Made by a program: the position numbers and the translations under genes. From Candidatus Omnitrophota bacterium (GTDB taxonomy: Bacteria > Omnitrophota > Gorgyraeia > Zapsychrales > Fredricksoniimonadaceae), in assembly GCA_044225175.1 (NCBI GenBank), contig JBGAJA010000001.1, positions 70,994-134,993 on the forward strand: a DNA stretch of 64,000 nucleotides. Reading direction: 5' to 3'. The notes under the pieces were generated by a model. The model worked only from the letters and a program-made list of their open reading frames with translations. It was not told the DNA's origin and did no database searches. Positions 9,600-61,149 of this stretch are shown one piece after another (positions within the stretch are counted from its first letter, which is position 1; the number at the start of each line of letters is the position of its first letter).

Positions 9600-11393
<1,794 letters not shown>

Positions 11394-22380: not shown

Positions 22381-25300
22381 ATGAAAAGAGTTATCTCAGT
22401 ACTTACTTTGGCGTGTTTCTTTGCCACAGGACAGATAGGAATTTGTCCGGTTTCTGCCCAAGAAACATTTGTGCTTCCCAAGTCTGGAGAGTTTGTCCCT
22501 TTAAGCTCTAATTTTAATCCTATTGTCATGCGAGGACTTCGCATCGATCCTAAAAATCCATTTCGTTTCAGCTTCTTGGTTGATGAAGGCGATTCCAAAT
22601 TTAAAGAAAAAGATTTCAAAGAGGAAGCCCAAAAGGTCATCAAGTATTTTTTGACATCTCTGACCATCCCCGATGATGATTTATGGGTCAATTTGTCCCC
22701 CTATGAGAAAAACCGCATTATTCCTACAGAGTTTGGAAAGACCGAAATGGGCCGGGACCTTTTAGCCCAAGACTATATCCTCAAACAAATCACCGCTTCA
22801 CTCATTTATCCTGAAAAAGAGTTAGGTAAGACGTTCTGGAACAAGGTTTATAAACTAGCTAAAGAAAAATATGGCTCAGCAAATATCCCGATCAACACTT
22901 TTAATAAAGTCTGGATTGTTCCTAATCAGGCAACAGTTTATGAGCATAAGGGTACGGCTTTTGTAATGAATTATCATTTGAAGGTAATGCTGGAGGAGGA
23001 TTATTTGGCATTGAATAAACATTCTGGTGTCATTGCGAGCGAAGCGAAGCAATCTTTTAAAAAGATTGCCGCGTCGCCTTCAGTTCCTCGCAATGACACG
23101 CATAGTGTTGCCTTTCAAATCATCCGAGATATTATCCTCCCCGAACTCGAAAAAGAAGTCAACGCTGGCAAAAATTTCGCCCCCTTACATCAGATATTCT
23201 ATTCATTGATTTTGGCGACTTGGTATAAGACAAAGGTCAAACAAGATCTTTTAAATCAGGTTTATGCGGATAAGAAGAAAATTGAGGGAATTAAATACTC
23301 AACGCCAACCAGGAGACATGTTCGAAACAAGAACAACAGGAACGTGTCCCCAGGCAGCCTGCCAAGCAAAACAGGGTTGAATATGGAAGCGACCCAGAGG
23401 AACGAACCATTTGATGTTGAAACCATCTACCAACAATACCTCCAAGCCTTCAAAAAAGGTGTTTATAACTATATCAAAGATGAAATCGACCCTCTGACAC
23501 AACAGATTGTTCCCAGGAAGTACTTCTCGGGTGGGGTTGTTGGTCATGTTGCTCCTAAATCCATTCAAACGGTCGGAGCTGAGGCTCTTAAACCTGATGT
23601 TTTATCAAAGTTTCATTTAAGAAACGTTTCAGGAGATATGGCATTAATTAGCCAAAACTCATCACAAGATAATGACTTTGCTGGGGGATTAATGGGACGG
23701 TGGAAATATGAAAAAGCCATATTAAATCAGCAAAAGGGAACGTTGGTGTTACACAATGCAGTTAGGATCCCTCGTAAAGATGGCATTATTGAACCTGAAT
23801 TTTTTATTAATGGGGAGAATAAACCTCGGGACATTATTTTGAAAATACGAAAACTAAGGTCGAATGAAAGTCATATGCTTTTTAAAGCGTTATGGAGGCC
23901 AGAGGGGATCCCTCACAATGATTACAAATATAGAGAACTAACTCAGACTCTTGTTCGAGACGAATCAGCGATCAAGCATCGTATTTATGGGGCAGCAGTT
24001 GATGGTATTCCTTTTATTCGTGAAGATATTTTTTTACAGGGTAACAAAGAACAAATTCGAGAAGCTTTTGAACATGAGGTGATGGAGCTAGCAGGCTTAT
24101 CTCATGATGCCATACGACAGGCACAATATGCGGGAAATTTACGGCTATTAATCCGTGATTTATCTAGTCGAGACAAGAAAGATATTTTATCCTACTCTGC
24201 TGATGCCAATCGTAATGTGCTGCTTAAGCAATATTTTTCCACTAGGAGAGAGACTCTATTCTTGAGCCGACAGAATAAGGCTACAGCCACATTTACTACA
24301 ATTACTCCTGAATTTCGTTCAGATTCAAAGCCCAATGCTTTATACGATGGAGGACTTGGACGTTTTGGGCGGTTGATGAAAGAATTAGAAGAAAGTGATT
24401 TTATTCATATTAAGACAATCAAGGTCGTGACATCTTCTCAATTTACTCATTTACAAAGTTTATCTTTTTCCGTCAATGGTAAAGAAGTTTATATGTATTT
24501 TGAAGATCCAGAAACTTTGGTTCTCACACAAGGATTGTGGGATCAAATCAAAGAAGGAACAGAGCCAAATTTATATTTTGAAATGGCCAAAGCGCTTATT
24601 TTATTAGCTTGGGCTGGATTTCAGGGGGACTCAGTCGAAGGTTTTGCAGAAGAAATAGGTTCTGAAGAGAGTATGGTGATTTATGATTCGGACAATCAAA
24701 AAGAACAGACTAAGTTAGAAACGTTCTTTTATCTTGACCACATTAAACGTACCAAAGGACCCCTCAACGATACAGCGATTCGTTATTTAGGTTATCTTTT
24801 ATATATGTATGGTTTTGATGGTGGTCGGATGAGTATATTTTCTCCCGAAACTTTAGCAGAAGTATTAGTTAAACAGATCCAACAGATTTATGGAAGTGAA
24901 GTTAGCCTAGAGCATGCCAGGGAAGTTATAAAGTCCGATCAGTTTGACCAACATTTTTATTATAAGAGTATAGAGGATTATAAATCTAAAGAAGTCCAAG
25001 GCGACCCCGGGAGTCAAGAGCAGCTTCATGAGATTTTAAGTATTTTTGAAGATCCTTCTATCCAAGAACGCCTAACCTATGAATTAAAGCATTTTGATAC
25101 GATTTATCCAGGACAAAGATGGCGTATATCAATGATTGAGGACATACGTGGTATGGGTATGTCTGCGAATATGGGAACAAAATTGGTTTTGGATTATCCC
25201 TTGGCAGAAACTGGACATAGACCGCGTCTTTATGTGCTGCCTCCAGAAGGTGGAAAGCCCATTTATGGTCACGATTTTAAAGAATTACCTTCTTACGAAC

Positions 25301-28300
25301 TAGAAGTTAAAGGTGAGTTAGGTGAAAGAAAATCTCTTGGCAATGATTTCATGGTTATTGATGGTCAAACAAGAATGCCATTGAAATTATTTTTGGAAGA
25401 ACGTTTAGATGTTGATCTTAAACGAAGCCAGTATATGTTTGATAATTTATTTATTGTTGAAAATGGTGGAGAAATAGCTCGAAATATAAGAACAGGACAT
25501 CTAGAAATTTATTTTATTGGCAATGAAAAGAATTCCAGTGTGAATTTTGAAACAGGTATTATCAATGGTGCTAACATTGCGAGAGAAGAAGAGGAAGAGC
25601 AGGATGAGAAGGAGTCGTGGCAGCAAACATTTAATCCTTTATATGCCCCAACCGATGATCCTGATATTGAATTAGCTTTGAGGTATCATTTCCATCCGAC
25701 AAAATATAAGCCCATTATTTCTTCAGGTGATATTGATTCTAAGATTAATGAAATCTATAGAACAAACCATCAAAGCTCATCTCTGCCTGAACTCATTATC
25801 AATTTTAATCAAGAAGGACGCCTTTATTTGCCAAGGGCCAATATTAATTGGAGAAGAGCTCTCAAAGTTTTGAAGCAAATTACTAAACATCATGGCTGGG
25901 AAGATACCAGATATTTTAATGATGATGGACAAGCTGAACGTTGGGAGCGTCAAAGTTTAGAGTTTGAGAAAGAAGTGGCAAGGTTTTTTGATATTGTATC
26001 TCTGAAATTTAATGATGATGGTAGTGTGAAAGAATGGAAAATGCTTGAGAAAGCAGATTCTGCCATGGGAGCTCATGAGTCGGATCAGCCGATTATTCGT
26101 GATGGTGTGGACCAGCGTGCTTATCTAGAACAAGTACTGGGCTCTTTGCCTGGACCAAAACCGACTGTTGTGATGGCAGATGAAAAAAATAATCAACCTA
26201 TAGATCCTCAACCTTACAGGGGTGGAGGAGTATTCCAAAGAGAATTTAATACCATGCTTAATTCCCAGGATATTTTTGTTCTCTATGGTTATTGGGAATC
26301 GATTAAAAGAGTAGCGCAAGCTTTTGGAGAAACAGAGGAGAAATATCGTCAAAAGGAAAATATTAAGATTGTTTTAAATGGCCAGGGGCTGGTAGGTGTG
26401 TGGAACGTTCCAGAAGGAGTTAATGCTGTCATTCAAGAAATATTCTTAACAAAAAGTTTAACTGTGCCTGTTTTAGCCAATATTGTTCCATTGACAAGTA
26501 TCATTGATTTTTATCGTCAAAATAATCCTTTTGCCAAAGAAATATTAACAACATATATCGATAGTCTTCTTTCTCATAGTGCTGAACCTATTTTATCTTA
26601 TCCGATATTTCAATCTATTATAGATCACCTTATGAAACGTCATGACGAAGGGGAGACTCGAAAGAAAAATGCCAAAAAAAGAAGTGATCCGAATGAGTAT
26701 AAAATAGATCAAGAAAATCGAGAATTTGAAACGATTATAACTCGAGTATTGAGATTATTGACACCCGAGACTTTGAGGGGCTATTTACGTCAGTTTGTGA
26801 TTGATCGTCATTTAGATAGCGGTAGTATTAGAGAATATTTTCCAGTTATTTTGCAAGATCATAATGAAGAAAGAAAAGTCCAAGATATGTTGTGGGACAT
26901 TTATCTCGATGCGCGTAATAATCCTCAACAGAACATATTATTTGCCAAAACACTCATCCATCATCTGAGTTCAAGTGTAGGAAATTCTCAAGCCGTGGGA
27001 TGGATTTATCGTATTTTGTCAGAGGGCAATTTAGAGCATTCCCACAAAGCCATTCGTATTTTATTAGGAATGAACATTAATAAAGATGACCAAAGACAAT
27101 TGTTTTATCTGATAAAAACTACCAGCCCTTATCAAGATATTCTAGCTGCATATACCTTGGCCCACGTTAAAATATTTGGTATGGAGACTCAAACAACCCG
27201 AGGAGGTTCGAGTAATTTCGAACGTGATGGTCTCATGTCTCTTCAATCGGAGGAAACGCGTAATATGTATTACTATCTTATGAATATCGATGCGATCTTA
27301 AAGAAAGGAGGGGTCGCTGATCGTGATGTCGACCATAGGATTTTTCAATATGCAGCAGCACTTGATGAATATGCCGAATATCCAGGTCAGTTTGGTCATA
27401 CATGGTTTTCTAATTTACGACAGAAAATTCATAGGGCAGTTAATCGCAATGATCTGTATCGTATTGAAGGAATTCTGCGTTTTTGGCAGAATCTTGACCC
27501 GCAAGTTTTTGCCAGGATCTCAGAAAAAAGGAAGTTTCCATGGGAGACATCTACAGAAATTGCCAAAGATTTCGATAAAGATGATTACTCTAGGATCTTG
27601 AACAATCTATTGGCTTCTCTTATTCATCAAGGTGACATTAATCCTGGTTTAGATATGATTGAACAGCTTACGCATCTTGAGAAAAATTATGTCATAGAAA
27701 AATTAAAAGAGGCAAATTTAAAAGAAGATAATATTAGGGTTGAGAAAGTCGAACATATGTTGAATTTATATTTTGCATTGAGTCAAAAATTTACAACCAA
27801 TATTCCCAGCATTATTCAGGGAATTAATGACCTGCAGGAGAGCAAAGCAAATTACCTTGGATTTTGTCGTCAAGAGTATAGTGCTTTAAAGAGAGCTTTG
27901 AAAGGTCAGGATGAGCAAGTGGTTCTTGAAGCGGTCGTCAACTTACGGTTGGCCATTAGAAATGATTACTTAACTCATCCTATGCCAAACGAAGATGATC
28001 GAGAAAGCCGTGACAATGAATCTTATAGAAGAGAGAAGCTTGGTCAATTGGACCATGATTTGCATATTTTGGGTCGTTATTATTTAAATAATGTGTTTAG
28101 TCAAACTATTCAACATGTGCTTACCCTGGATGACATTCGATCTAACACGAGTGTTTTAATTTCTGTAGCTAAGTTCATCCAATCTGAAGGATTAGGAGGA
28201 GTAGATTTAGAACAATTTATAGAACAAATGCAGGAAGGTAATCTGAGTCATTCCCAATGGCATGATCTCATTCGTGCTTTACAGACACAAGTTTTAAAAA

Positions 28301-30381
28301 TAGTTCAACAGATCGATAAAAACATACGTTTTGTCACCCCACATATGCTGCAAGCAGAAAATTCTTTGGATATTCGTTGGCAAGGTCTTTCGAAATTTGA
28401 AAAAATCCCTACAGGACATGGGTGGGACAGAGAAGTTTTGACTGAGCAGAGTAAAAAAGACATAGAAAATGCTTTGGTCGATGAATTAATTCGAGAAGCT
28501 GGATTGGATGTTTTTAAAGCCTCTTTAACTCAATTTGATCAAATTCTTGAAAATCAGCCTGCTGAGCAAGAATCCGCACAGCCTTTACCCGTAGATACTA
28601 CTACTCCTCATGCTTTAGATCGTTACTTCTTACATTTTGGGCAAGGTAATATATCTTCCACGCAGAGACTTCTTCTATCTTTATGGAGCAAAAAAGGCTT
28701 GAATTTGGTCCGTATGAGTCAAAGAGGCATTGCTGTTCCTCCTGGCGTTGTTGTGAGTTCAGAGCTCATGACCCGTCCTGATATTATTCATTCCGAGCCT
28801 TTTAAGAAGAAGGTCATGACTGAGATAGACGAGCTACGCAAGCATTCGAAATATCCGGATTTGAAATTACTTTTATATGCCCGTAGTGGTTCTGCATTTA
28901 TGTTGCCTGGGCTCTTGAGTACTATTGCCAATATTGGGATGAATGACAAAGAAGCTAGTGAATTAGAAGCAAGCACAAAAGACACTTGGTTTGCCTATGA
29001 CACTTATGCCTCTTTTATCCGTTCTTTTGGAATGTATGTGTTTGGGATTGAGGAGAAGTTCTTCCAAGAAGTCTTTAATATGTACACCAAGGACAAGGTC
29101 TCTGGAGAACGAATGAAGCAGGTGGTTGAACAATACAAGGAAGTCATTGGTAAGCATGGGGGCGGTAAACAAATACCTGAAACTATGATTGATCAAGTCA
29201 TTATGGCTATGGAAGCTGTCTACGCTTCCTGGGATTCACCCAATGCCAAAGAATACCGTCAAAGGCATCGTATCTCTCAATCATGGGGCACAGTTGTCAT
29301 TCTCCAAAAAGGTGTATTTGGTAATATTCAAAAGACGCATGATGGAAAGATTTCAGGAGCTGGAAGTGCCAGTTTAATGACAGCGCCAGATGGACAGCCA
29401 ATCATTCAAGGGGAGTTTCGATATCAAGCTCAAGGAGACCAAATCATGAGCGGGGCTGATCAAAATACTGTTTCTTTAAACCAAAGAGAATCATCTCTCC
29501 AAAATGGGCAAACATTTGAACAGCTTAATCCAGAGCTTTATAAGAAAGTCCTTCAAGAAGCCCTACGGTTAAAACAAATCTTTGGCCATGACCAATTGAT
29601 TGAATTTGTCATTGAGCGGGGGGATGTTTGGATCACGCAAAGCAATGATGACTTTATGAGAGAAGACTTTCCTGAATTTGCTGAGCAAACGACAAATGGG
29701 CCTATTGTTCGCGGCAAAGGATTAAGCGGGGGCGCTGTTCGTGGATGGGCTGCTCATACAGTGGAAAAAGCCACGGAATTAATGGCCCGATATCAGCATT
29801 TGAAACAAACGAGCCCTCAAGAAGTTAAAGATGTGGATGGTGTGATTTTACTTCTAGATCGCATTAATCCTGAAATGATCAGCCAAATCCCAAAAGGGGT
29901 TCATATTCTAGCCAAAAAGCTTTCCGTCCATGCTGTATCATTGGCCCAAGAGTCAGGTATTAGTGTTGTAGCTGAAGTTCCAGATGACAAAATGATTTTT
30001 GATATCGCAAAGAAAGAATGGGTCATTGCAGGGCGCTTTATATCTGATGGCCAGGTCTTGAGTATGGATGGCCACAGAAATCAACTTGCCTATCATCAAA
30101 GCGGAAATATTTATTTGGGAAGTGTTCCTATTGCTAAAGAAGAAGAGGTAAATCAAGCTTCTACTGATGATCACGCCATGAATAGTCAACAAACACCTGG
30201 CGGTATCGATTTAACCTCTAAAAGGTATAAGATTCTCATCAAGAGCGATGGTCAGGAGATAGCAATGGATTTTAATCCCGCCATGATCCATGATTTAAAT
30301 TTCGACGGCCTAGAGTTCCACATTAACCACATACAACCCATACCAAATCCCCGAGAATTTTTGCTAGAAATCTCTAAATAA
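22381..30381 (+). CDS. Giant secreted multidomain protein (~2,666 aa) with C-terminal PPDK-type ATP-grasp and PEP-utilising phosphohistidine (swivel) domains
   Basis: The ORF opens at 22327; the likely start is ATG 22381, followed by the signal peptide MKRVISVLTLACFFATGQIGICPVSAQE. The C-terminal ~650 aa show motif-level matches to the PPDK N-terminal nucleotide-binding domain (GIAVPPGVVV; ARSGSAFMLPGLLSTIANIGMND…FAYDTYASFIRSFG; TVVILQKGVFGN…GAGSA) and to the His-swivel domain (LSVHAVSLAQESGISVV; His codon 29929-29931). Confidence 0.8.
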   Translation: MKRVISVLTLACFFATGQIGICPVSAQETFVLPKSGEFVPLSSNFNPIVMRGLRIDPKNPFRFSFLVDEGDSKFKEKDFKEEAQKVIKYFLTSLTIPDDDLWVNLSPYEKNRIIPTEFGKTEMGRDLLAQDYILKQITASLIYPEKELGKTFWNKVYKLAKEKYGSANIPINTFNKVWIVPNQATVYEHKGTAFVMNYHLKVMLEEDYLALNKHSGVIASEAKQSFKKIAASPSVPRNDTHSVAFQIIRDIILPELEKEVNAGKNFAPLHQIFYSLILATWYKTKVKQDLLNQVYADKKKIEGIKYSTPTRRHVRNKNNRNVSPGSLPSKTGLNMEATQRNEPFDVETIYQQYLQAFKKGVYNYIKDEIDPLTQQIVPRKYFSGGVVGHVAPKSIQTVGAEALKPDVLSKFHLRNVSGDMALISQNSSQDNDFAGGLMGRWKYEKAILNQQKGTLVLHNAVRIPRKDGIIEPEFFINGENKPRDIILKIRKLRSNESHMLFKALWRPEGIPHNDYKYRELTQTLVRDESAIKHRIYGAAVDGIPFIREDIFLQGNKEQIREAFEHEVMELAGLSHDAIRQAQYAGNLRLLIRDLSSRDKKDILSYSADANRNVLLKQYFSTRRETLFLSRQNKATATFTTITPEFRSDSKPNALYDGGLGRFGRLMKELEESDFIHIKTIKVVTSSQFTHLQSLSFSVNGKEVYMYFEDPETLVLTQGLWDQIKEGTEPNLYFEMAKALILLAWAGFQGDSVEGFAEEIGSEESMVIYDSDNQKEQTKLETFFYLDHIKRTKGPLNDTAIRYLGYLLYMYGFDGGRMSIFSPETLAEVLVKQIQQIYGSEVSLEHAREVIKSDQFDQHFYYKSIEDYKSKEVQGDPGSQEQLHEILSIFEDPSIQERLTYELKHFDTIYPGQRWRISMIEDIRGMGMSANMGTKLVLDYPLAETGHRPRLYVLPPEGGKPIYGHDFKELPSYELEVKGELGERKSLGNDFMVIDGQTRMPLKLFLEERLDVDLKRSQYMFDNLFIVENGGEIARNIRTGHLEIYFIGNEKNSSVNFETGIINGANIAREEEEEQDEKESWQQTFNPLYAPTDDPDIELALRYHFHPTKYKPIISSGDIDSKINEIYRTNHQSSSLPELIINFNQEGRLYLPRANINWRRALKVLKQITKHHGWEDTRYFNDDGQAERWERQSLEFEKEVARFFDIVSLKFNDDGSVKEWKMLEKADSAMGAHESDQPIIRDGVDQRAYLEQVLGSLPGPKPTVVMADEKNNQPIDPQPYRGGGVFQREFNTMLNSQDIFVLYGYWESIKRVAQAFGETEEKYRQKENIKIVLNGQGLVGVWNVPEGVNAVIQEIFLTKSLTVPVLANIVPLTSIIDFYRQNNPFAKEILTTYIDSLLSHSAEPILSYPIFQSIIDHLMKRHDEGETRKKNAKKRSDPNEYKIDQENREFETIITRVLRLLTPETLRGYLRQFVIDRHLDSGSIREYFPVILQDHNEERKVQDMLWDIYLDARNNPQQNILFAKTLIHHLSSSVGNSQAVGWIYRILSEGNLEHSHKAIRILLGMNINKDDQRQLFYLIKTTSPYQDILAAYTLAHVKIFGMETQTTRGGSSNFERDGLMSLQSEETRNMYYYLMNIDAILKKGGVADRDVDHRIFQYAAALDEYAEYPGQFGHTWFSNLRQKIHRAVNRNDLYRIEGILRFWQNLDPQVFARISEKRKFPWETSTEIAKDFDKDDYSRILNNLLASLIHQGDINPGLDMIEQLTHLEKNYVIEKLKEANLKEDNIRVEKVEHMLNLYFALSQKFTTNIPSIIQGINDLQESKANYLGFCRQEYSALKRALKGQDEQVVLEAVVNLRLAIRNDYLTHPMPNEDDRESRDNESYRREKLGQLDHDLHILGRYYLNNVFSQTIQHVLTLDDIRSNTSVLISVAKFIQSEGLGGVDLEQFIEQMQEGNLSHSQWHDLIRALQTQVLKIVQQIDKNIRFVTPHMLQAENSLDIRWQGLSKFEKIPTGHGWDREVLTEQSKKDIENALVDELIREAGLDVFKASLTQFDQILENQPAEQESAQPLPVDTTTPHALDRYFLHFGQGNISSTQRLLLSLWSKKGLNLVRMSQRGIAVPPGVVVSSELMTRPDIIHSEPFKKKVMTEIDELRKHSKYPDLKLLLYARSGSAFMLPGLLSTIANIGMNDKEASELEASTKDTWFAYDTYASFIRSFGMYVFGIEEKFFQEVFNMYTKDKVSGERMKQVVEQYKEVIGKHGGGKQIPETMIDQVIMAMEAVYASWDSPNAKEYRQRHRISQSWGTVVILQKGVFGNIQKTHDGKISGAGSASLMTAPDGQPIIQGEFRYQAQGDQIMSGADQNTVSLNQRESSLQNGQTFEQLNPELYKKVLQEALRLKQIFGHDQLIEFVIERGDVWITQSNDDFMREDFPEFAEQTTNGPIVRGKGLSGGAVRGWAAHTVEKATELMARYQHLKQTSPQEVKDVDGVILLLDRINPEMISQIPKGVHILAKKLSVHAVSLAQESGISVVAEVPDDKMIFDIAKKEWVIAGRFISDGQVLSMDGHRNQLAYHQSGNIYLGSVPIAKEEEVNQASTDDHAMNSQQTPGGIDLTSKRYKILIKSDGQEIAMDFNPAMIHDLNFDGLEFHINHIQPIPNPREFLLEISK
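23027..23099. repeat. Palindromic mini-element copy A (GTGTCATTGCGAG…CTCGCAATGACAC), embedded in frame within the giant ORF
   Basis: Imperfect hairpin with the same termini as copies B and C; translated in the host frame as …GVIASEAKQSFKKIAASPSVPRNDTH…. Confidence 0.7.
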
Positions 30382-39449: not shown

Positions 39450-40268
39450 ATGAAAAATTCGAAAGGCAAAACATCTACTATTATTATCATTTTGATCACT
39501 CTTTTGTTGATCTCTTGTACTGCCATAGGGTTTTATTTGTATCAAAAAGAAAACCAGATGCGAAAAGACCTTGAGGTGCAGCTGCAAGACAGTAAAACGC
39601 AGCAAGATAAGCTTTCCAATGACCTTCGCGATGCTAAGAAGCAACTCCTGCTTCTTCAAGATAAAAATAAAGAGGCTGATGCCAAGATTAATAACTTGAT
39701 GGATGAAATTGAACTCACCCAAGGTCTTCGTAATGAATTAAAGAAAGAAAATGGTTCTTTAAAGGAAGCCATAGAGGCAGCAAAAAAAGAAAAAGAAGCA
39801 TTGAAAGCTGAACTCAATGATACCGCAAAAAAGTTGCAAGAGAATCTTGAGATTTTAAAAGCAGAACAAGTGAAAACAAAGGATCTACAAGCTCAAATCT
39901 ATTCTTATGATCAGTCAGAAACCCGTCGTCAGTCTAGATCTGACATCGCAAGATCTAGAGAGTTATCTCCAGACATGCCGCCACCAGCGCAGCAAAAAAT
40001 GGAGCTAGATAAGATTGTTGTTGGTGAACAGTCCGACAAAGGAAGGGTTCTAAGTGTGGATAAAGAATCAGATTTTGTTATCTGCAATTTAGGATCTCTG
40101 CATGGTATCCAGGCTGGAGATGTTTTGTCTGTTTATCATGAGGATCAGTATCTTGGTGAGTTAAAAGTCTCACGGGTACAGGAAGAAATGTCTGCTGCTG
40201 ATTTTGTTCCGCCATTATCCAGTCGTAAAGTCCGAAAGAATGACATCGTTGTGCTTAAACAATCATGA
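39450..40268 (+). CDS. Coiled-coil protein with N-terminal TM anchor
   Basis: TM helix, then ~150 aa of heptad-rich K/E/L sequence; the C-terminal ~80 aa may form a small beta domain. Confidence 0.5.
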   Translation: MKNSKGKTSTIIIILITLLLISCTAIGFYLYQKENQMRKDLEVQLQDSKTQQDKLSNDLRDAKKQLLLLQDKNKEADAKINNLMDEIELTQGLRNELKKENGSLKEAIEAAKKEKEALKAELNDTAKKLQENLEILKAEQVKTKDLQAQIYSYDQSETRRQSRSDIARSRELSPDMPPPAQQKMELDKIVVGEQSDKGRVLSVDKESDFVICNLGSLHGIQAGDVLSVYHEDQYLGELKVSRVQEEMSAADFVPPLSSRKVRKNDIVVLKQS

Positions 40269-41488
40269 TTCTAAACGTCAAACCAGCCCAATCTTTAAAA
40301 GGGCAGTTTCATCTGCCTGGTTCTAAATCCTACTCCATTCGAGCATTTTTTGTTGGTTCTCAAAGTAGCAAATCCTCTTCTATTATTGATGCGTCCAATT
40401 GTGATGATGCCAAAGTGGCTCAGAATATTTCGAAACATTTCAAGTCTAAGGCAAAGGTATTTGATGTGGGTGAGTCTGGGACGAGCCTGCGCTTTTTATT
40501 GCCGCTATTAGCCTTTCAACCAAATCAGGTTGTCGTCAAAGGTAAGGGAACTCTGATCGGCAGGCCTAATGCCCATTTATGTGAAACTTTGCGTCGGCAA
40601 GGAATGAATATCAAAGGCAGCGGTGTGAAAGAATCTGTTCCTATTACCTACACAGCGGGAAAGCTTAAGGCAGGGAAAATTAAGATTGATGGAAGTTTAA
40701 GTTCCCAATTTGTGTCTGCATTATTAATCGCCTTGCCCCAGCTCAATGAGGACAGTCGTTTATTAATTACAGGTTCTAAGATGGTATCGGTAGATTACAT
40801 TCAGATGACGATCCAGATTCTTTCTAAAGCAGGAATTAAAATTCAGCAAATATCTCAACGAGAATATGTGATTAAAGGAAATCAAAAGTTTAAAAGATTA
40901 AAAGATTTTAAAGTTCCCTCTGATTATGGACTTGCTGCTTTTCCTTTGGCGGCAGCTAGTTTAATTAAATCAAATGTCGTTTTAAAAGGGCATTTGAAAG
41001 AAGATTTGATTCAGGCAGATGGTCATATTATGGAATTTTTGAAGCGCATGGGAGTGGTTTACAAGAAAAACAATTCTTTAATTTCACTTCAAGGTCCTTT
41101 TGATTTAAAAGGAGGAGTTTTTTCTCTTAAAGATTGCCCGGATTTAGTTCCTATTATGTCTGTTTTAGCCCTATTTGCTAAAGGCCAAACAAAGATTGTA
41201 GATATCCATCATGCAAGAGCTAAAGAATCAGACCGGATTTCTGATGTGAGAAGGGAGCTTCTTAAGGTGGGGGCTGATGTCAAAGAAACCGCCAATGCTT
41301 TAATGATTAATCCTAAGCCAGGAAGTTATAAAGCAGGCCAGGTTTTAGACAGCCACAACGATCATCGTTTAGCCATGGCTTGGACTGTCCTTGGATTAAA
41401 GATTGGCTGCAAAATTAAGGGTATAGAATCCTGCCGAAAGTCCTATCCAGATTTTGTTAAAGATATGAGAATATTGGGTTTAAGATAG
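40265..41488 (+). CDS. aroA: 3-phosphoshikimate 1-carboxyvinyltransferase (EPSP synthase)
   Basis: LPGSKSYSIRAFF N-terminal motif and overall EPSPS layout; ATGA overlap upstream. Confidence 0.85.
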   Translation: MILNVKPAQSLKGQFHLPGSKSYSIRAFFVGSQSSKSSSIIDASNCDDAKVAQNISKHFKSKAKVFDVGESGTSLRFLLPLLAFQPNQVVVKGKGTLIGRPNAHLCETLRRQGMNIKGSGVKESVPITYTAGKLKAGKIKIDGSLSSQFVSALLIALPQLNEDSRLLITGSKMVSVDYIQMTIQILSKAGIKIQQISQREYVIKGNQKFKRLKDFKVPSDYGLAAFPLAAASLIKSNVVLKGHLKEDLIQADGHIMEFLKRMGVVYKKNNSLISLQGPFDLKGGVFSLKDCPDLVPIMSVLALFAKGQTKIVDIHHARAKESDRISDVRRELLKVGADVKETANALMINPKPGSYKAGQVLDSHNDHRLAMAWTVLGLKIGCKIKGIESCRKSYPDFVKDMRILGLR

Positions 41489-54744: not shown

Positions 54745-56244
54745 ATGGGAGGCTATGTTAATATTTTGACCATGAATCAATACAAAATTTTTGTTAGCGG
54801 AGTTCAGAAAGAACTCAAAGAAGAACGTCGGACGATTAAAGATTTGATTCAAAAGAATTCTCTTTTGATGGATCATTTTGACGTTTTTTTGTTTGAAGAT
54901 TCACCTGCCAGAAGTAAATCTGCACAACATTCTTATCTTGCGGAAGTTAGAGACTGCGATATTTATATTGGTGTTCTGGGGAATCAATATGGCAACGTCA
55001 CTAAAGGTAAATTATCTCCTGTGGAAGAAGAGTTTCGTACTGCTCAAAAAGCTGACAAAGAGATTTTTCTTTTTATAAAAGGTGAAAATAGCCAGAATGA
55101 CAAGAATCGTGAGGTTGGAATCCAAAAACTTATCAAAGAAATCAAAGACCCTCGTAAAGGACATAGTTATAAGCGTTTTAATAACATCGATGAGTTGACG
55201 GATTCTGTTTTTGACAGTCTTGTTATTTTTTTGAAAGAAAAGGGCATAGTTGGACGCGGTGATTTTGACCAGAGAATATGTGAAGGGGCAACATTGAACG
55301 ATATTGATATGGAGAAGGTCAGATGGTTTATAAGAACGGCTAGAGCTAAACGTAATTTTCCGTTTGATGTGGACACGCCAATTAAAAAAGTTTTTACACA
55401 TTTAAAATTTCTTAATAAAGGACAATTGACCAATGCCGCAATACTTTTGTTTGGTAAGAATCCTCATCAATTTATTTTACAGGCAGAAATTAAATGTGCC
55501 CAATTTGCGGGCATGGAAGTAGTTAAGCCATTTTTAAATTTTAAGGTTTATAACGATAACTTATTTGAACAGGTGGATAAGGCAGTGGGTTTTGTATTAG
55601 ATTCGATCAAGATTGCATTACATCAACAAGAGGGGAAGGCCCAGGCTAAAAGAACTCCGGAAATTCCTTTGTTTGCTATTGAAGAGGCAATTGTAAATGC
55701 GGTCGCTCATCGAAATTATAATAATACTTCCGGGGTTCAAGTGATGGTATTTGCAGATCGGGTGGAAGTTTGGAATTCAGGGAGTTTACCATCGGATTTA
55801 TCTCTTGAAGATTTAAAAAAAGATCATACATCACATCCAGCTAATCCCCTTATAGCAGAAGGTTTTTATAATGCGGACTATATTGAACGCTTCGGATCAG
55901 GAACCACCGAGATGGTTTCTCAGTGTAAACAACAAGGATTGCCTGAACCGCAATTTATTCTTAAGCGTAATGTTGAGTTTAGAACGATATTATCCAGGGA
56001 TGTTTATAGTGAAGATATATTAAATAAGTTGAATCTGAATGAGCGGCAAATCAAAGCAATCAGATTTATTAAGGAACATGGAGAGATTTCCCGTAAAGAA
56101 TACGTTGATGTAGCTTCGATTTCCCCACGGCAAGCGTTATCAGATTTAGGTGATTTAGTGTCTCAAAAGATTGTTTTTTCTGTAGGTAAGGGACGATCTG
56201 TTAAGTATATATTGCGTAATAATCGCGCAGTAATCGCGCAATAA
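54745..56244 (+). CDS. DUF4062 - Schlafen/AlbA_2-like - HATPase_c_4 - wHTH fusion protein (putative conflict-system or regulatory ATP-binding protein)
   Basis: N-terminal YKIFVSGVQKELKEERRTIKDLI…CDIYIGVLGNQYG (DUF4062 pattern). Middle AILLFGKNP… (AlbA_2-like). Then AIEEAIVNAVAHRNY…VEVWNSGSLP…NPLIAEGFYNADYIERFGSGTT (HATPase_c_4 / 'RecG C-terminal' family), followed by a C-terminal wHTH. Alternative start at ATG 54772. Confidence 0.7.
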   Translation: MGGYVNILTMNQYKIFVSGVQKELKEERRTIKDLIQKNSLLMDHFDVFLFEDSPARSKSAQHSYLAEVRDCDIYIGVLGNQYGNVTKGKLSPVEEEFRTAQKADKEIFLFIKGENSQNDKNREVGIQKLIKEIKDPRKGHSYKRFNNIDELTDSVFDSLVIFLKEKGIVGRGDFDQRICEGATLNDIDMEKVRWFIRTARAKRNFPFDVDTPIKKVFTHLKFLNKGQLTNAAILLFGKNPHQFILQAEIKCAQFAGMEVVKPFLNFKVYNDNLFEQVDKAVGFVLDSIKIALHQQEGKAQAKRTPEIPLFAIEEAIVNAVAHRNYNNTSGVQVMVFADRVEVWNSGSLPSDLSLEDLKKDHTSHPANPLIAEGFYNADYIERFGSGTTEMVSQCKQQGLPEPQFILKRNVEFRTILSRDVYSEDILNKLNLNERQIKAIRFIKEHGEISRKEYVDVASISPRQALSDLGDLVSQKIVFSVGKGRSVKYILRNNRAVIAQ

Positions 56245-56256
56245 TTGCGCGATTAC
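56230..56256. repeat. Perfect 13-1-13 palindrome GTAATCGCGCAAT-A-ATTGCGCGATTAC overlapping the stop codon of the DUF4062-fusion gene
   Basis: Read directly; preceded by a direct repeat AATCGCGCA that encodes the protein's last residues (…NNRAVIAQ*). Confidence 0.45.
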
Positions 56257-56497
56257 TGAACAGATCGAAAAGAGGACAAACGCGCCATAAATACGCCAAA
56301 TGCACCTTTCGTGGCCGTGATGATGTCTATGCCAAGGTATTGATCAATAATAAAACGTAAGCTTATCATTAAATGTTCTGAATGCCCGAATCAGGGATTC
56401 CTGTCTCCGGACAAATCGTATTTCTAATTAGTATGTTTAGAAATTTATGACACATCTTTTTGAAATTTTAGCCCTACGCAAGCGAATTCGTAAAGTA

Positions 56498-58034: not shown

Positions 58035-59240
58035 TTAGAAGTTTCTTTCAATTTTTCCTGTGATCTTGGCCCCTTGAGTATTGATTTTACCTGCCGCACG
58101 ACCAAAACACATACCCATAGCTTCATAAATAGCTACTTGGCTTACGTCGACAAATCTCTGTTGGATAGCTTCTTTAGTATCCATATAACGAATTTGACCG
58201 CCGCTAATTCCAGCTACAGTCACGCCTGAAATGCCTTGATTAAGAAGGATAAAAGCTCCTGCGCCAACTTCTTTTCCGAAATTAACGTCATAAGCACTCG
58301 AATGTCCGCAGCGGACTAAGTGACCTGGGGTGACAGCACGAACTTCTGGGATTTCATTAATTCCTTTAACGTACATATTGGCTTTTTTCATTAGCTCAAT
58401 GATTTCAGGGTCGGCCTTCAGACGTTTGGTTAATTGCTGAGAGACGTATGTTCCAGCACCAGCTAAGCGTTTATGGCCGAAGGCATCCACGGGTGAGTTT
58501 TCATCAACGATATCAGATCCACTGGCATCTTTAATGCCTTCTGCAACGACAATCATGTAGGTCCCCGCATGAACATCGCTGTCTTTGATGCGCTTAAAAT
58601 AGCGTTGTTTCATGTGTTGATAAAGAATATCAAAATCACAGGCAATTTCAGGGATGATGATGGCATCAATGTCAGCAGCGACGCCGCCGCGAAAGGCGGT
58701 GTGTCCCGCATAGCGGCCGAATACTTCCATGACTAAGATACGATTATGGGTTGCGGCCGTTGTTTTTAAGTCTTCAAGAAATGTGGCAATACGATTGATC
58801 GTAGAGTCAGCACCTACGGAATAGGTTTGAAGGTCAAGATCCATAGTTTTGGGAGCATGAACGCAGGGGATACCATGTTCAGTTAAGTCGACAAGCACAC
58901 TTCCAGAATCATCACCACCGGAAATAATGAGGCCTTCAAGCTTGAATTTCTCCATGCCTTTTTTAATACGATCATATTTATTAGGATCTTCGATTTTTTT
59001 AATTTTAACTCTGGAATGGCCAGCCTCAGAACCTGCGAGGTTGGTATTGATTTTATCTAAGCGAGCTTCGGTTAATTCAGTCAATGTATCGAAATCAAGG
59101 AGGTTATAAAGACCAGCATAACCATTAGGGATGATAAAGCAGGAAACACCATGAGCGCGCGCCATAGAAGCGGCACCCTTAATAACACCATTTAAACCTC
59201 CGCAATCACCCCCGGAAGTAATAATACCAACACGTTTCAT
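58035..59240 (-). CDS. 6-phosphofructokinase, probably pyrophosphate-dependent (GGDD variant)
   Basis: MKRVGIITSGGDCGGLNGVI; IISGGDDSGS (Asp in place of the second Gly of GGDG, as in PPi-PFKs); MGR substrate motif region. Confidence 0.8.
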   Translation of the reverse strand: MKRVGIITSGGDCGGLNGVIKGAASMARAHGVSCFIIPNGYAGLYNLLDFDTLTELTEARLDKINTNLAGSEAGHSRVKIKKIEDPNKYDRIKKGMEKFKLEGLIISGGDDSGSVLVDLTEHGIPCVHAPKTMDLDLQTYSVGADSTINRIATFLEDLKTTAATHNRILVMEVFGRYAGHTAFRGGVAADIDAIIIPEIACDFDILYQHMKQRYFKRIKDSDVHAGTYMIVVAEGIKDASGSDIVDENSPVDAFGHKRLAGAGTYVSQQLTKRLKADPEIIELMKKANMYVKGINEIPEVRAVTPGHLVRCGHSSAYDVNFGKEVGAGAFILLNQGISGVTVAGISGGQIRYMDTKEAIQQRFVDVSQVAIYEAMGMCFGRAAGKINTQGAKITGKIERNF

Positions 59241-59322: not shown

Positions 59323-60987
59323 TTAAGACTTTTGAGCCGTGGCTAGCATATCCTGGGCATGTTCCAATGAAATACGGGTAGCATTATGGCCAGACATCAT
59401 TTGGGCGATTTCTTCCACGCGTGCTTTATCATCTAGAAGCTTAATTTCTGTCATGGCTCGGCCTGCTTTTAGAGATTTGGTAACTTTAAGGTGTTGATTG
59501 GCAAAAGAAGCAATTTGGGGGAGATGGGTGATTAGAATGACTTGGCGATGACGCGCCAATTGGGTTAATTTTTTGCCTGTTATAGTCCCTAGACGTCCAC
59601 CAATTTGAGCATCAATCTCATCAAAGATGAGTACTGGGATAGGATCAACCTTAATTAAAGCTTTTTTCAAAGCCAGCATGACCCGCGCTGCTTCTCCTGA
59701 AGAAACAATTTGAGCCAAAGGTTTTAATTCTTCTCCGGCATTTGGACTAATATAAAAGACCACATGATCAGTACCATTTGGACTAAAAGAGATCTTTTCA
59801 AAGCGAACTTCAAATCGCACATGATTAATTCCAAGATCTTTAAGCTCTTTTTCAATTGTTGCATTTAGCTCTTCCGCAGCTGTTTGGCGGGCTTTGCTCA
59901 TTTTATTGGCAATTTTGGTTAATTCTTTTTCTTTTTCACCAATACTTTGACGAATCTGGCTGTCATTGTGTTCAAAGTTCTTGATGAGCTCTAGTTTTTC
60001 TTTGCTTTCTTGATAGAAGCTGTTCGCCTCAGACAAAGAGGGACCATATTTGCGTTTGATGTCTTGATATTGATCGTAAATTTTATTGGTTTCTTCTGCT
60101 TGGTTCTCATCAAAGCTAAGGCTGTCAGCATAATTGGTCAACTCACCAATCAAGTCATTGGTTTGTTCTTGAATGGATGTTAATTGATCAAAAAGGGGAG
60201 AAGTCTTTTCGTCGATGTGATTTAGATTCTTCAACGGAGAAAAAGCTTTGCGTATTTGCTGATGAACTCCTGAATCCTCATCTTCTAAAATGCCAAGTAG
60301 GTTTTGAATATGCTCATGCAATTTCTGGGCATTGTTGATTTTGACAATTTCTTGGGAGACCTGTTCATATTTCTCTTCATTTAAAGGAACAGATTCTAAT
60401 TCTTTAACTTGATGAGTCAATAAATCTAGATCTCTTTGACGAGTTTGTGTCAGATTGTTCAAAGTTTGAAGCTTATTTTGGAGGTCTGTGTAATCTTTAT
60501 AGATATTGGAGTAATCATTTTTTAAAGATTTGAAGTCTACTAACTTATCAAGCATTTTAAGGTGTTCATTCTCTGATAACAGCATCTGATGATCGTGAGC
60601 GCCATGAAAATCAATGAGATGATTGCCAATACTTCTAAGCTGTGCAACAGTGACATTAAAGCCATTAATTTTAATCTTATTTTTTCCATCGGCAGATATC
60701 GAGCGTTGGATAATTAATTGTGTCTCATCTGCTTGAAGAAGGTCCACAAAGATTTCATTGGAACGAAGGGTCTGATCAAGTTCAAAAACTGCCTCAATGA
60801 TACAGGGATTCTTAGGGTCTCTAATAGAAGAGGAGTCAATCCGTTCTCCCAGTACCGAACGCAGAGCATCAATCAAGATGGATTTCCCAGCACCTGTTTC
60901 CCCGGTAAAGATATTTAGTTTTTGATCAAATTCAATAGATAGGGATTCAATGAGGGCAAAATTTTTGATTGTTAATTGAATCAACAT
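59323..60987 (-). CDS. recN: DNA repair protein RecN
   Basis: MLIQLTIKNFALIESLSIEFDQKLNIFTGETGAGKSILIDAL Walker A; long coiled coil; C-terminal signature/Walker B (LIFDEIDAQIGG). The ORF extends to 61029; the likely start is 60987. Confidence 0.85.
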   Translation of the reverse strand: MLIQLTIKNFALIESLSIEFDQKLNIFTGETGAGKSILIDALRSVLGERIDSSSIRDPKNPCIIEAVFELDQTLRSNEIFVDLLQADETQLIIQRSISADGKNKIKINGFNVTVAQLRSIGNHLIDFHGAHDHQMLLSENEHLKMLDKLVDFKSLKNDYSNIYKDYTDLQNKLQTLNNLTQTRQRDLDLLTHQVKELESVPLNEEKYEQVSQEIVKINNAQKLHEHIQNLLGILEDEDSGVHQQIRKAFSPLKNLNHIDEKTSPLFDQLTSIQEQTNDLIGELTNYADSLSFDENQAEETNKIYDQYQDIKRKYGPSLSEANSFYQESKEKLELIKNFEHNDSQIRQSIGEKEKELTKIANKMSKARQTAAEELNATIEKELKDLGINHVRFEVRFEKISFSPNGTDHVVFYISPNAGEELKPLAQIVSSGEAARVMLALKKALIKVDPIPVLIFDEIDAQIGGRLGTITGKKLTQLARHRQVILITHLPQIASFANQHLKVTKSLKAGRAMTEIKLLDDKARVEEIAQMMSGHNATRISLEHAQDMLATAQKS

Positions 60988-61149
60988 AGCTGCAATACTA
61001 ACAAAGAAAAAGATATTTGAGAAGGCCAAATTGTTTCAGACTTATCATGCGGCACAAAAGATTAGTGCGCACATAGGCATAGTACTACGTAAGAGAAAGG
61101 GTATTTAATATTTTGACTTGTGAGGGAAAATATGTAAGATTTTAAACAA

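Follow-up and report, generated by a model that had tools for sequence, protein, structure and literature searches.

In the 64,000-nucleotide stretch of DNA analysed here (the window), a gene ends in a perfect palindrome that overlaps its own stop codon. The locus raises two linked questions, namely what kind of protein the gene encodes and what the structure at its 3' end is for. Judged by its sequence, the protein is a single-polypeptide relative of the Schlafen-GHKL-HTH ('Schlatpase'-HTH) proteins in which the effector has been exchanged, a predicted NIR/DUF4062 NADase standing in place of the Schlafen tRNase, and it is probably a phage-defence protein.

The gene and its surroundings

The open reading frame reported in the earlier note is real and extends over 54745–56244 on the forward strand (499 aa; stop codon TAA at 56242–56244). 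The true start is probably the ATG at 54772 (M10), giving a 490-aa product, because the homologues begin at M10: the alignment of 17 homologues starts at this residue, and the first nine and the last 7–8 residues of the frame are unconserved. The closest homologue (P0002) was 83% identical. Another relative (L001), with 82% identity to the window protein, has a different C-terminus, a TGGCGATT array and a rearranged contig start. The NCBIfam search of the window protein gave no match.

The neighbouring genes were as previously described, with DUF2079 and a Methyltransf_23+GT2 fusion upstream and a TPR protein downstream. The intergenic spacer preceding the TPR gene (56259–56446, GC 0.391) is ordinary and includes a single sigma-70-like match (56340–56369, +). 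It had been called unusually GC-rich, but positions 56245–56446 have 39.1% GC compared to 36.3 ± 4.1% in the 16 intergenic regions of the window and 38.9% in the whole window. Comparison of GC and codon usage showed no compositional sign of recent transfer: the GC of the gene was 0.362 against 0.391 ± 0.026, its GC3 0.29 against 0.339 ± 0.041 and its codon-adaptation index 0.717 against 0.701 ± 0.027. No transposon-like ends or target-site duplications were found around the gene.

Domain architecture

The N-terminal DUF4062, or NIR (TIR-like NADase), domain covers positions 54784–55239 on the forward strand, the Pfam core being at aa 14–100 and the folded unit reaching to about aa 165. The earlier assignment to DUF4062 was confirmed by a Pfam PF13271 match over the entire profile (aa 14–100, profile positions 1–82 of 82, E = 1e-19, 70.9 bits against a cut-off of 24.7). 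F16, E94 and E96 were invariant among 18 homologues, with the motif SPxExE[FY]. In the numbering of the 490-aa product the two glutamates are E85 and E87, and their distance from the N-terminus is that expected for the catalytic Glu of NIR proteins; E94 and E96 are accordingly the candidates for the catalytic residue. The AF2 model had pLDDT values of 82–90 over aa 10–165. Foldseek comparison of the N-terminal domain with the PDB produced generic Rossmann/Ras and nucleoside deoxyribosyltransferase folds, which are compatible with a TIR/NDT-like fold and not diagnostic of it.

The linker or middle domain (VRWF..ARAKRNFP..LTNAAILLFGKNP) and the GHKL (Bergerat) ATPase follow at 55267–56004 (+), identified from Pfam, a PADLOC model match and invariant residues. 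The HATPase_c_4 domain claimed previously was recovered as a Pfam PF13749 match at aa 330–415 (55732–55989; E = 4e-20, 72 bits against a cut-off of 26). All the Bergerat-fold motifs were invariant, including the N-box (E314/N318), G1 (N344/G346) and G2 (G384/G386/T387), and the GHKL domain is assigned by these motifs, the AF2 model of the region being poor (pLDDT 30–60). PADLOC, proposed earlier as a check, had no system model for the architecture and returned just partial matches to the domain common to pAgo-associated models, positions 170–436 of the SLFN-pAgo model matching aa 164–417.

The protein ends in a winged helix-turn-helix (wHTH) at aa 431–490 (56035–56214, +), in agreement with the original reading, and the support for it is indirect. 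The AF2 topology is helix-helix-helix-strand-strand over aa 433–490 (helices 433–445, 450–457 and 461–473, strands 477–480 and 487–490; pLDDT 84–91), the Pfam DIP2311-like_C match to the C-terminus was below threshold (E = 0.0026), and the C-terminus aligned weakly with the C-terminal part of PDB 3LMM. The assignment also draws on the co-variation with the downstream repeats described below. The predicted recognition helix comprises aa 461–473 (56125–56163, ..SPRQALSDL..) and the wing is GKGRSVKYIL. The best solved relative was 3LMM itself, which is DIP2311 of Corynebacterium diphtheriae from structural genomics and the source of Pfam DIP2311-like_C (Foldseek E = 1.6e-8 over 424 columns). In sequence it aligns around the GHKL N-box and over the C-terminal wHTH; the identity to the window protein is only 17%, and its N-terminal part was not DUF4062 by any result.

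The Schlafen/AlbA_2 region that had been claimed was absent, as PF04326 had no match at E ≤ 1 and the sequence does not contain the motif Ex4(E/D)xK. The nearest look-alike, QAEIK at aa 246–250, has an unconserved Glu. Instead of being fused to a Schlafen/AlbA_2 protein, as first described, DUF4062 occupies the position that the Schlafen nuclease has in the canonical architecture. In the canonical relative L081 the motif reads ESETLEFK; the canonical relative on the Rhodothermus plasmid pRMAR01 begins its conserved part with ESETLEFK..AFANTRGG (AlbA_2), after which come the same LTNAGVLLFGKRP middle domain, the GHKL domain and the wHTH.

Relation to known defence proteins

Preprints of 2026 have shown that DUF4062 is a TIR-like NADase ("NIR") acting as an effector in phage defence (10.64898/2026.05.01.722283, 10.64898/2026.06.25.731849, 10.64898/2026.09.04.749371). 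The same preprints include the single-gene systems Swarozyc (KpSwz), Evangelion (Eva01) and Vulcan as well as NIR-Avs, and place the catalytic Glu of the tested NIR proteins at E97 (KpSwz), E98 (Vulcan), E103 (VstA), E108 (PsAvs2) and E87 (Eva01). Like the window protein, the NIR systems have in one polypeptide an N-terminal DUF4062 with conserved Phe and Glu motifs and then a variable C-terminal 'auxiliary' region. They likewise have a patchy distribution of the type produced by HGT, with about 20% of the genes near defence genes. The auxiliary region differs, being here a GHKL ATPase and a wHTH with its putative cognate array, whereas in the NIR systems it consists of HEAT repeats, a STAND NTPase or a portal-binding domain. 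KpSwz, too, has an HTH/winged domain at its end, copies of which pack side by side. However, in Swarozyc this HTH/winged auxiliary domain binds the phage portal, not DNA, and thus the wHTH of the window protein need not be a DNA reader. In two of the NIR/DUF4062 preprints, text searches found no mention of Schlafen, HATPase or AlbA.

Schlatpase-HTH (pSlfn-HisKinase-HTH) consists of Schlafen (AlbA_2), GHKL PF13749 and a C-terminal HTH (Kuzmenko et al. 2026, 10.64898/2026.05.29.728809; Perez Taboada et al. 2026, PMC13056530). It is the commonest prokaryotic Schlafen architecture, for which one paper gives 60,692 proteins, over 90% of the C-terminal tails being HTH. With the window protein it has in common the linker/middle domain, the PF13749 GHKL ATPase with its N-box E/N and the C-terminal wHTH; Schlatpase-HTH genes are also found near type I R-M loci, are patchily and horizontally spread, and in some members have arrays abutting the stop codon. 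With the Schlafen nuclease replaced by DUF4062, the predicted output is NAD+ depletion and not tRNA cleavage. In RzAgo, PF13749 binds and hydrolyses ATP via its own N-box E314/N318 (Mg-ATP), and ATP binding to PF13749 leads to assembly into tetramers and switches on the fused effector. Such ATP-driven oligomerisation is known from RzAgo alone.

Of seven systems tested, defence was seen with just two, the DUF262 and Ig-like fusions, and so the HisKinase-type constructs did not give it. The latter included 100–150 bp of upstream sequence, while downstream sequence was not described. Neither 10.64898/2026.05.29.728809 nor PMC13056530 mentions a DUF4062 fusion or DNA repeats beside the genes.

Distribution and genomic context

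Homologues with 55–62% identity were scattered over Omnitrophota, Elusimicrobiota, Nitrospirota, Patescibacteria, Bacteroidota, Clostridia, Altiarchaeota and Methanomicrobiales, and no synteny was common to the homologue loci. This patchy occurrence across phyla without shared synteny supports the suggestion of a horizontally mobile single gene. Type I R-M genes were located at most 8 kb away in 13 of the 59 homologue loci, giving the family an anti-phage context in part, and R-M, Fic, RhuM or YhcG genes were present in 24 of the 59. The role in biological conflict or immunity proposed at the outset gains from these R-M-type neighbours and from the description of DUF4062 as an NADase defence effector in the preprints. 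The window itself is no defence island: all its 50 ORFs look housekeeping, and no defence or mobile genes were found in the 64 kb. On a Hymenobacter plasmid, a separate DUF4062 gene is located immediately upstream of a Schlatpase-HTH gene.

The palindrome and array at the 3' end of the gene

The palindrome reported at the stop codon is present and perfect, but its length had been underestimated: it is 15-1-15 instead of 13-1-13 (CAGTAATCGCGCAAT-A-ATTGCGCGATTACTG, 56228–56258), with the middle base of TAA as its centre and inverted and forward units as its arms. No second perfect inverted repeat of such kind was found in the 64 kb, the naive expectation being about 64,000 × 4^-15 = 6e-5. The direct repeats noticed in the last codons were also found (TAATCGCGCA at 56220 and 56231).

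Contrary to the earlier view of the palindrome as a separate feature, it is an atypical, partly inverted form of the direct-repeat array present at the 3' end of most relatives. The remnant array, of the TGCGCGATT type, covers positions 56211–56258 and includes a degenerate unit (56211–56221), two reverse units and one forward unit. The reverse units, TAATCGCGCA at 56220–56229 and 56231–56240, are the reverse complement of TGCGCGATTA, and the forward unit TGCGCGATTAC is at 56246–56256; the reverse complement of 56220–56241 reads T+TGCGCGATTAC+TGCGCGATTA. The array has altogether 3–4 units, three of them recognisable and two inverted, and in this reduced form it may be decaying. In the rest of the window there were no copies of the array motif. 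The 13 relatives with the same helix type have four forward units at 0, +11, +20 and +31 past the stop codon and none reversed, and among the 71 family genes only that of the window has a palindrome built from array units.

The inversion of two array units created the palindrome and removed the ancestral stop codon. Because the ancestral stop position (..YxLRK*) was lost, seven lineage-specific codons (NRAVIAQ, 56221–56241, +) are read out of the array, and the coding end is ..TTGCGTAATAAT in the window and ..TTGCGCAAATAA in the relatives.

Repeat arrays across the family

At least four short direct repeats, next to the stop codon or across it, were found in 85 of the 124 full-length homologues (pooled), compared to about 1% of the controls. 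In the first set at least four copies were present in 39 of the 71 family genes, in five of 473 neighbouring genes and in none of 213 shuffles. The replication set of metagenome loci, obtained by a scan with an alignment (a scan with a single protein gave none), had arrays in 48 of 75 loci against two of 233 random windows. The spacing between units was 11 bp in 106 cases and 9 bp in 43, with one each of 10 and 13 bp; the mean, 10.44 ± 0.25 bp, is about one turn of DNA. Of the 39 arrays 25 straddle the stop codon, and no copies of the motif were found in the regions upstream of the family genes.

The arrays co-vary with the putative DNA-binding domain. When the wHTH core was defined by alignment and the arrays were compared by 6-mer Jaccard similarity, array similarity was correlated with wHTH core identity (Spearman 0.416; 0 of 1000 permutations), in contrast to the values of 0.03 for the NIR domain and 0.001 for the GHKL domain. 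A previous test, which located the helix by regex and compared the best 7-mers, was not significant (Spearman -0.03; 309 of 2000), because the register of the 7-mers was arbitrary and the regex frequently selected another helix than the intended one. Concerted one-base switches were present in every unit, SPRQAL pairing with TGCGCGATT and SPRMAH with TGCACGATT. Arrays also occur in some of the canonical AlbA_2 versions, with from five to more than 16 units, and some examples of the canonical family on cultured plasmids have weak 2+2 arrays or none. No arrays were found with C-terminal variants of other types or with Fic proteins having a similar wHTH.

In the literature searched, repeat arrays at the stop codon matching the DNA-binding domain of each relative were not found described. 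The phased copies and the co-variation point to the array as a candidate cognate, iteron-like site of the wHTH, to which it would bind; co-inheritance through linkage could contribute to the correlation.

Proposed function

The explanation that we favour, and hold to be somewhat better than an even bet, is a horizontally spread single-gene NADase effector with an ATP-driven oligomerisation switch, the wHTH of which docks on its own cis-linked array. The GHKL domain would be the switch, and oligomerisation would turn on the NADase as in other TIR-like NADases, so that NAD+ would be depleted and the infection aborted. The winged helix would read a short DNA unit present in 4–5 copies, one helical turn apart, at the stop codon of its own gene. 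With units so spaced beside the gene, several protomers could align on one face of the DNA. The cis-linked array would then be a docking or titration site, which might catch the protein as its C-terminal domain is finished and restrain the effector or set its dose until the trigger.

If this is true, the arrays are a concrete candidate ligand for the HTH of Schlafen-GHKL-HTH proteins, with a readable helix-to-motif code, and they suggest that constructs without the 3' flank leave out a part of the system. As the window's gene demonstrates, the GHKL-wHTH chassis can also bear another effector, the newly recognised NIR NADase, which joins two lines of the defence research of 2026. Should the binding fail, the gene would still be one of the ordinary, uncharacterised representatives of a large family whose proteins are predicted to act in conflicts.

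Alternative explanations of the array

A stronger version of docking, possible in our view though doubtful, makes the array a cis-linked DNA 'antidote' or docking platform common to the NIR-GHKL-wHTH and Schlafen-GHKL-wHTH proteins. Newly made protomers of the toxic effector, bound at the 3' end of their own gene, would be held inactive, and loss, degradation or out-titration of the DNA would free them for ATP-driven oligomerisation and cell suicide. The array could be lost through phage-induced breakdown of the chromosome, loss of the element or competing foreign DNA. Such a reading, if true, would mean a DNA-tethered guard or addiction mechanism and would provide a function for the HTH tail on most of the about 60,000 Schlatpase proteins.

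The correlation of array and wHTH might also be produced by linkage alone, if a recombining cassette made up of the gene's 3' end and the adjacent repeats is passed on as a unit, the repeats being substrates or by-products of recombination or slippage. The wHTH types are indeed shuffled when set against the phylogeny of the N-terminal and GHKL parts, the wHTH core adjoins the array so that co-inheritance could supply a part of the correlation, and there is the inversion inside the array of the window itself. Several loci (L026, L030, L032, L045, L053, L065 and L070) have stacked tandem arrays of two different types, resembling successive replacement of cassettes. However, neutral flanking DNA would not keep 4–5 near-identical units with a fixed 11/9/11 spacing across wHTHs that are only about 46% identical, and where related arrays differ, every unit has changed in concert, in step with substitutions at the beginning of the predicted recognition helix. 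No recombinase was conserved beside the family genes, and the search for silent C-terminal cassettes beside orphan arrays produced just broken fragments of family genes and one small wHTH ORF (L008). We therefore regard linkage alone as unlikely.

The palindrome could instead be a plain transcription terminator or an mRNA-stabilising 3' hairpin, with the repeats incidental. It is part of a compound stem-loop (56194–56267, +), in which the outer arms CGATCTGTTAAGTA and TACTGAACAGATCG surround the palindrome and 13 of the 14 positions of the outer inverted repeat (56194–56207 / 56254–56267) are matched. This hairpin is strong (-37.4 kcal/mol, z = -4.0) and located precisely at the stop codon, and the next gene has a promoter-like site of its own. 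Yet no U-tract follows on the 3' side, where the sequence is AAAAGAGGACAAACGC, the consensus scan called no terminator at the site, and the Rfam search gave no match. Furthermore, in the 70 other family genes the same position is taken by direct repeats unable to form a hairpin, and the 10.4-bp phasing and the co-variation with the wHTH are left unexplained, all of which makes an RNA hairpin as the purpose of the structure unlikely.

Some sources annotate these proteins as 'predicted HTH transcriptional regulator', and the C-terminal wHTH would suit an ordinary transcription factor with the array as the operator of downstream genes. The downstream genes are co-directional in 28 of 35 cases, and in several loci the array stands just upstream of RadC-HsdM-HsdS-HsdR. 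Nevertheless, 30 of the 35 downstream genes are unclassified or unique, no family being conserved, and the median gap is 243 nt. The array is anchored where the preceding gene stops and not where the following one starts, the gene's own promoter is without motif copies, and both the TIR-like NADase and the GHKL ATPase would be superfluous in a regulator, so we find this very hard to sustain.

That the repeats work as RNA, in a 3'-UTR array which, like the antidote of a type III toxin-antitoxin system, binds the protein or is processed by it, is highly improbable: in typical members they are always on the coding strand and co-transcribed with the gene, and the family descends from RNA-cleaving Schlafen proteins, but the units are 9–11 nt compared to about 36 nt in known type III antitoxin repeats, the spacing equals the helical repeat of DNA, the arrays co-vary with a winged helix in a family without the Schlafen RNase, and the two inverted units of the window would ruin an RNA ligand, not a duplex-DNA site.

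As a putative docking site of the winged helix, the array resembles known iteron- and centromere-like arrays, such as the 11-bp parC iterons of R1, to which ParR binds, and the incA iterons that lie downstream of repA in P1. In both, direct repeats phased at about one helical turn are linked to the gene of a small DNA-binding domain. The family differs from them in that the putative binder is not a partition adaptor or a replication initiator and carries an NADase and a GHKL ATPase, and in that the array straddles the stop codon, a partner ATPase and an origin are absent, and most of the copies lie on chromosomes. Diversification of specificity between relatives is common to both, and in one genome two paralogues of the family (L054 and L064) have different arrays.

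Domain architecture and effector swap

The open reading frame for the 499-aa product was found intact at 54745–56244 on the forward strand, as claimed in the earlier note, but a start at 54772 is likelier because the alignment begins at Met10 in 17 homologues. Two of the claimed domains gave strong Pfam matches, DUF4062 or NIR (PF13271; aa 14–100, E = 1e-19) and the GHKL domain HATPase_c_4 (PF13749; aa 330–415, E = 4e-20). Residues F16, E94 and E96 (SPxExE[F/Y]) are invariant in the family and are placed where tested NIR proteins have Phe and Glu, and the GHKL motif residues are also invariant (N-box E314 and N318; G1 N344 and G346; G2 G384, G386 and T387). By profile and motif, the target is assigned to both the DUF4062/NIR and PF13749 families. 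The Schlafen/AlbA_2 region also proposed for it was not recovered, as PF04326 did not match even at E ≤ 1 and the Ex4(E/D)xK motif was absent; judged by these profiles and motifs, the target is not a Schlafen/AlbA_2 protein. The C-terminal winged helix (wHTH) was well modelled by AF2, while the Pfam match to DIP2311-like_C (aa 437–490) remained below the threshold. The AF2 model as a whole (pLDDT 68) was good for the NIR and wHTH parts and poor for the GHKL region; among solved structures, the best match was to DIP2311 (PDB 3LMM), a relative that is uncharacterised. The NCBIfam search of the protein gave no match. PADLOC called no system, and its match was limited to an internal segment shared with Schlafen-pAgo and related pAgo-associated models; in the Schlafen-pAgo model the target matched positions 170–436, the shared domain.

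DUF4062 has been described as a TIR-like NADase and renamed NIR (10.64898/2026.05.01.722283, 10.64898/2026.06.25.731849, 10.64898/2026.09.04.749371), and the same three preprints report that its catalytic Glu is required for phage defence in Swarozyc, Evangelion, Vulcan, Vesta and NIR-Avs. NIR domains act by depleting NAD+, and TIR-like NADases become active when they oligomerise (DUF4062/NIR preprints; 10.64898/2026.05.29.728809). According to the Schlafen-Argonaute paper (10.64898/2026.05.29.728809), PF13749 acts as a genuine GHKL ATPase: the N-box Glu/Asn pair of RzAgo binds and hydrolyses ATP, and ATP binding leads to tetramerisation, which switches on the fused effector. That paper, the only one in which the term was found, names the Schlafen and GHKL pair "Schlatpase" and counts 60,692 such proteins, most with a C-terminal HTH.

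A canonical relative encoded by a frameshifted gene on the Rhodothermus marinus plasmid pRMAR01 has, unlike the target, the N-terminal sequence ESETLEFK..AFANTRGG, but continues with the middle domain (..LTNAGVLLFGKRP..), GHKL and wHTH as in the target. As the target lacks the Schlafen part and the remaining layout is identical, we therefore read it from sequence as an effector-swapped Schlatpase-HTH, with a predicted NIR NADase where the Schlafen tRNase would be. Independent support for a functional link between the two modules comes from a plasmid of Hymenobacter sp. YIM 151500-1 (NZ_CP110140.1; locus L237, 1–1860), in which only 22 nt separate the end of a stand-alone DUF4062 gene from the canonical Schlafen-GHKL-HTH gene downstream, the two-gene counterpart of the fusion. 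The DUF4062-GHKL-wHTH fusion was not mentioned in the text of two of the DUF4062 preprints or of the Schlafen paper of Perez Taboada (PMC13056530). The target is new as a GHKL-wHTH chassis with a swapped effector, while the kinds of its components were already known.

Repeat arrays at the stop codon

Inspection of the downstream DNA revealed short direct repeats 3' of the stop codon in nearly all homologues. When the region from -40 to +80 nt around the stop was scanned for chains of 7-mers with at most one mismatch, 8–13 nt apart, at least four copies were present in 39 of the 71 family genes, against 5/473 other genes of the loci and 0/213 shuffles. Also an independent set of metagenome contigs showed at least four copies in 48/75, compared to 2/233 random windows. 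Pooled full-length genes had at least four copies in 85 and at least three in 111 of 124 cases. In the 64-kb window, four copies were reached solely at the target and in one AT-rich stretch at 40872–40915, which has five TTAAAAG-like units, 8–10 nt apart, inside the ORF 40265–41488 and is probably low-complexity coding sequence.

Two spacings of the units account for almost all cases, 11 bp (106) and 9 bp (43), usually in the patterns 11-9-11-11 or 11-11-9-11; the mean of 10.44 ± 0.25 bp corresponds to one B-DNA turn. The stop codon is straddled by 25 of 39 arrays, and the last codons are thus written by the repeats. The motif was not found upstream of the family genes, and no conserved downstream gene adjoins the arrays. 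Iteron and centromere arrays resemble them in geometry only. Some canonical AlbA_2-GHKL-wHTH genes of viral or prophage contigs, and the pRMAR01 gene, also have arrays, here with 5 to more than 16 units, each exactly 10 bp long. A few cultured plasmid relatives had only weak 2+2 arrays, and other C-terminal types (..GGHWEV.., ..PDKPNSRLQKYRLT..) had none. The available text of the Schlafen-Argonaute paper (10.64898/2026.05.29.728809), searched for DNA repeats, had no mention of stop-codon arrays.

In seven loci two unlike arrays, e.g. ATGAGCC x4 followed by TGGCGATT x3, are stacked 3' of the stop (locus coordinates: L026 5523–5590, L030 9479–9590, L032 9443–9555, L045 1656–1760, L053 9476–9590, L065 9458–9570 and L070 5132–5240). 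They look like successive 3' cassettes or sites kept for a second paralogue. Loci L054 and L064 each have two paralogues with differing arrays. In L008 (2860–3165) a small stand-alone wHTH ORF (..GGHWEVLKKGH*) lies ca. 400 nt past a family gene and is followed by a mixed array of seven units (AAAGGGGCATT..AAAGGGCTCAT..), which is not preceded by a wHTH fragment of the common type.

Co-variation of the array unit and the winged helix

The unit varies among the homologues and tracks the winged helix: ..SPRQAL.DL.. occurs with TGCGCGATT, ..SPRMAHLDL.. with TGCACGATT, ..SDEGAR[RK]DL.. with TTGGCGATTA, ..KKRQSTDDL.. with AAGGGGCG, ..SK[PA]TATR[DE]L.. with GG(G/A)CTCA, ..ERTLNRDL.. with ATCGGACAT, ..R[KR]TLYRDL.. 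with TGGGACAT, and ..KRRLASYEL.. with AATGCGCA. This helix-to-unit code was found again in both sets, genome loci and metagenome contigs. For 100 unique proteins, the 6-mer Jaccard similarity of the arrays correlated with identity in an alignment-defined wHTH core from which the last 24 residues were left out (Spearman 0.416; 0/1000 permutations); the corresponding values were 0.03 with the NIR domain and 0.001 with the middle and GHKL part. Identity of the core was 70.5% in pairs with similar arrays and 46% in other pairs. An earlier form of the test pointed in the same direction, and a crude regex form failed for technical reasons. The correlation could partly come from linkage of a recombining 3' cassette.

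The palindrome of the target gene

The direct repeats TAATCGCGCA reported at 56220 and 56231 were present. The palindrome, centred on the stop codon, is real and perfect, but longer than the 13-1-13 described, being 15-1-15 at 56228–56258. It is flanked by an outer inverted repeat (13/14; 56194–56207 and 56254–56267), and was the sole perfect hairpin of its class in the 64 kb scanned. The predicted folding energy of the complete element is -37.4 kcal/mol (z = -4). A terminator is an unlikely explanation, there being no U-tract after the hairpin and no terminator-like site called there, and Rfam gave no match at the hairpin.

Read in reverse complement, the segment 56220–56241 exactly matches two array units 11 bp apart; one forward unit follows at 56246–56256. 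The 13 relatives with the window's helix type each have four forward units at 0, +11, +20 and +31 past ..YxLRK-stop and none has reversed units; two units have therefore been inverted in the window. Equivalently, the 3' end may be described as having undergone an inverted duplication, which would also explain the outer inverted repeat. This copy has lost the ancestral stop, seven added codons (NRAVIAQ) are read out of its array, and the array is reduced. A palindrome of array units was present in no other of the 71 family genes, and we interpret that of the window as a rearranged member of the family-wide array.

Proposed mechanism and significance

The observations comprise the architecture, the arrays with their phasing and position, and the co-variation. 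PF13749 is described as an ATP-driven oligomerisation switch (10.64898/2026.05.29.728809). If the wHTH reads the repeat unit, four to five protomers could align on one DNA face, at the 3' end of the gene that encodes them. There, on the stop codon, a site would be ideally placed for capturing the protein at birth, because the wHTH is translated last and transcription and translation are coupled, and through such capture the array may titrate or restrain the toxic effector. A further possible effect is negative feedback, with RNA polymerase blocked by the array ahead of the stop. The inverted units of the window favour duplex DNA over RNA as the presumed ligand. For the winged auxiliary domain of Swarozyc, the ligand reported is the phage portal, not DNA (DUF4062/NIR preprint).

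What the analysis offers above all is a testable candidate ligand for the HTH tail found throughout a very large, defence-associated family. For the prokaryotic Schlafen constructs tested in PMC13056530, the cloning description covers 100–150 bp upstream but no downstream flank; of the seven systems, only two, the DUF262 and Ig-like fusions, conferred defence. If the arrays matter, these constructs leave them out.

Distribution and gene neighbourhood

More than 2,000 proteins matched the target, the best 120 of them all having its architecture (58–64% identity). Genome matches came from Omnitrophota, Elusimicrobiota, Nitrospirota, Patescibacteria, Bacteroidota, Clostridia, Desantisbacteria, Altiarchaeota and Methanomicrobiales, and seven loci have two family copies each. 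Neighbour clustering of the homologue loci found no synteny with the window; the recurrent neighbours were the type I restriction-modification genes HsdM (12 loci) and HsdR (7), together with RadC (11), Fic and RhuM (6 each), and YhcG and GIY-YIG (4 each). Restriction-modification genes were present in 13/59 loci of at least 6 kb, in agreement with the ca. 20% published for NIR genes (DUF4062/NIR preprints).

The neighbours of the target are as had been claimed, a DUF2079/methyltransferase-GT2 module on one side and a TPR protein on the other, with pdxJ, acpS, cdaA, pfk and recN nearby. The target is not in a defence setting: 50/50 window ORFs look housekeeping and the PADLOC matches are generic only. 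Neither flanking duplications nor mobile genes were found around the target. The 3' spacer, described as unusually GC-rich, has 39.1% GC against 36.3 ± 4.1% in the intergenic regions of the window, and GC, GC3 and codon index of the suspected horizontally acquired gene are all within ca. 1.2 SD. The observation of the earlier note is partly confirmed and its interpretation partly supported.

The closest genome match (L001 1–1245, 82% identity) lies at a contig start that is rearranged or chimeric: its first 129 nt correspond to window 55629–55757, and 123–1245 to window 54938–56060. Its C-terminus and array (TGGCGATT) are unlike those of the window. In L046, two family copies (5704–7173 and 8192–9661) share a contig, 2.5 kb apart. 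Their C-terminal tails and arrays are identical, as is the downstream sequence over the stretch compared, so that they are either duplicated in tandem or an assembly repeat. Among six plasmid-borne relatives inspected, L081, L082 and L234 adjoin replication or partition genes and L235–L237 do not. A ParB-like gene is directly upstream in L082 (Legionella plasmid NZ_CP021280.1) and L234 (Chlorohelix plasmid), and the relative in L081 (Rhodothermus pRMAR01) is placed between repA and parA. Legionella DUF4062-GHKL proteins (41% identity) have another C-terminus and no array.

The window also includes a giant ORF of 2,684 aa at 22327–30381 on the forward strand and one ORF with a MORN-repeat Pfam match. 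Of the 50 ORFs of at least 120 aa kept by a simple filter, only 11404–13260, pfk (58035–59240) and recN (59323–61029) are not on the forward strand, which makes a strong strand bias over the 64 kb.
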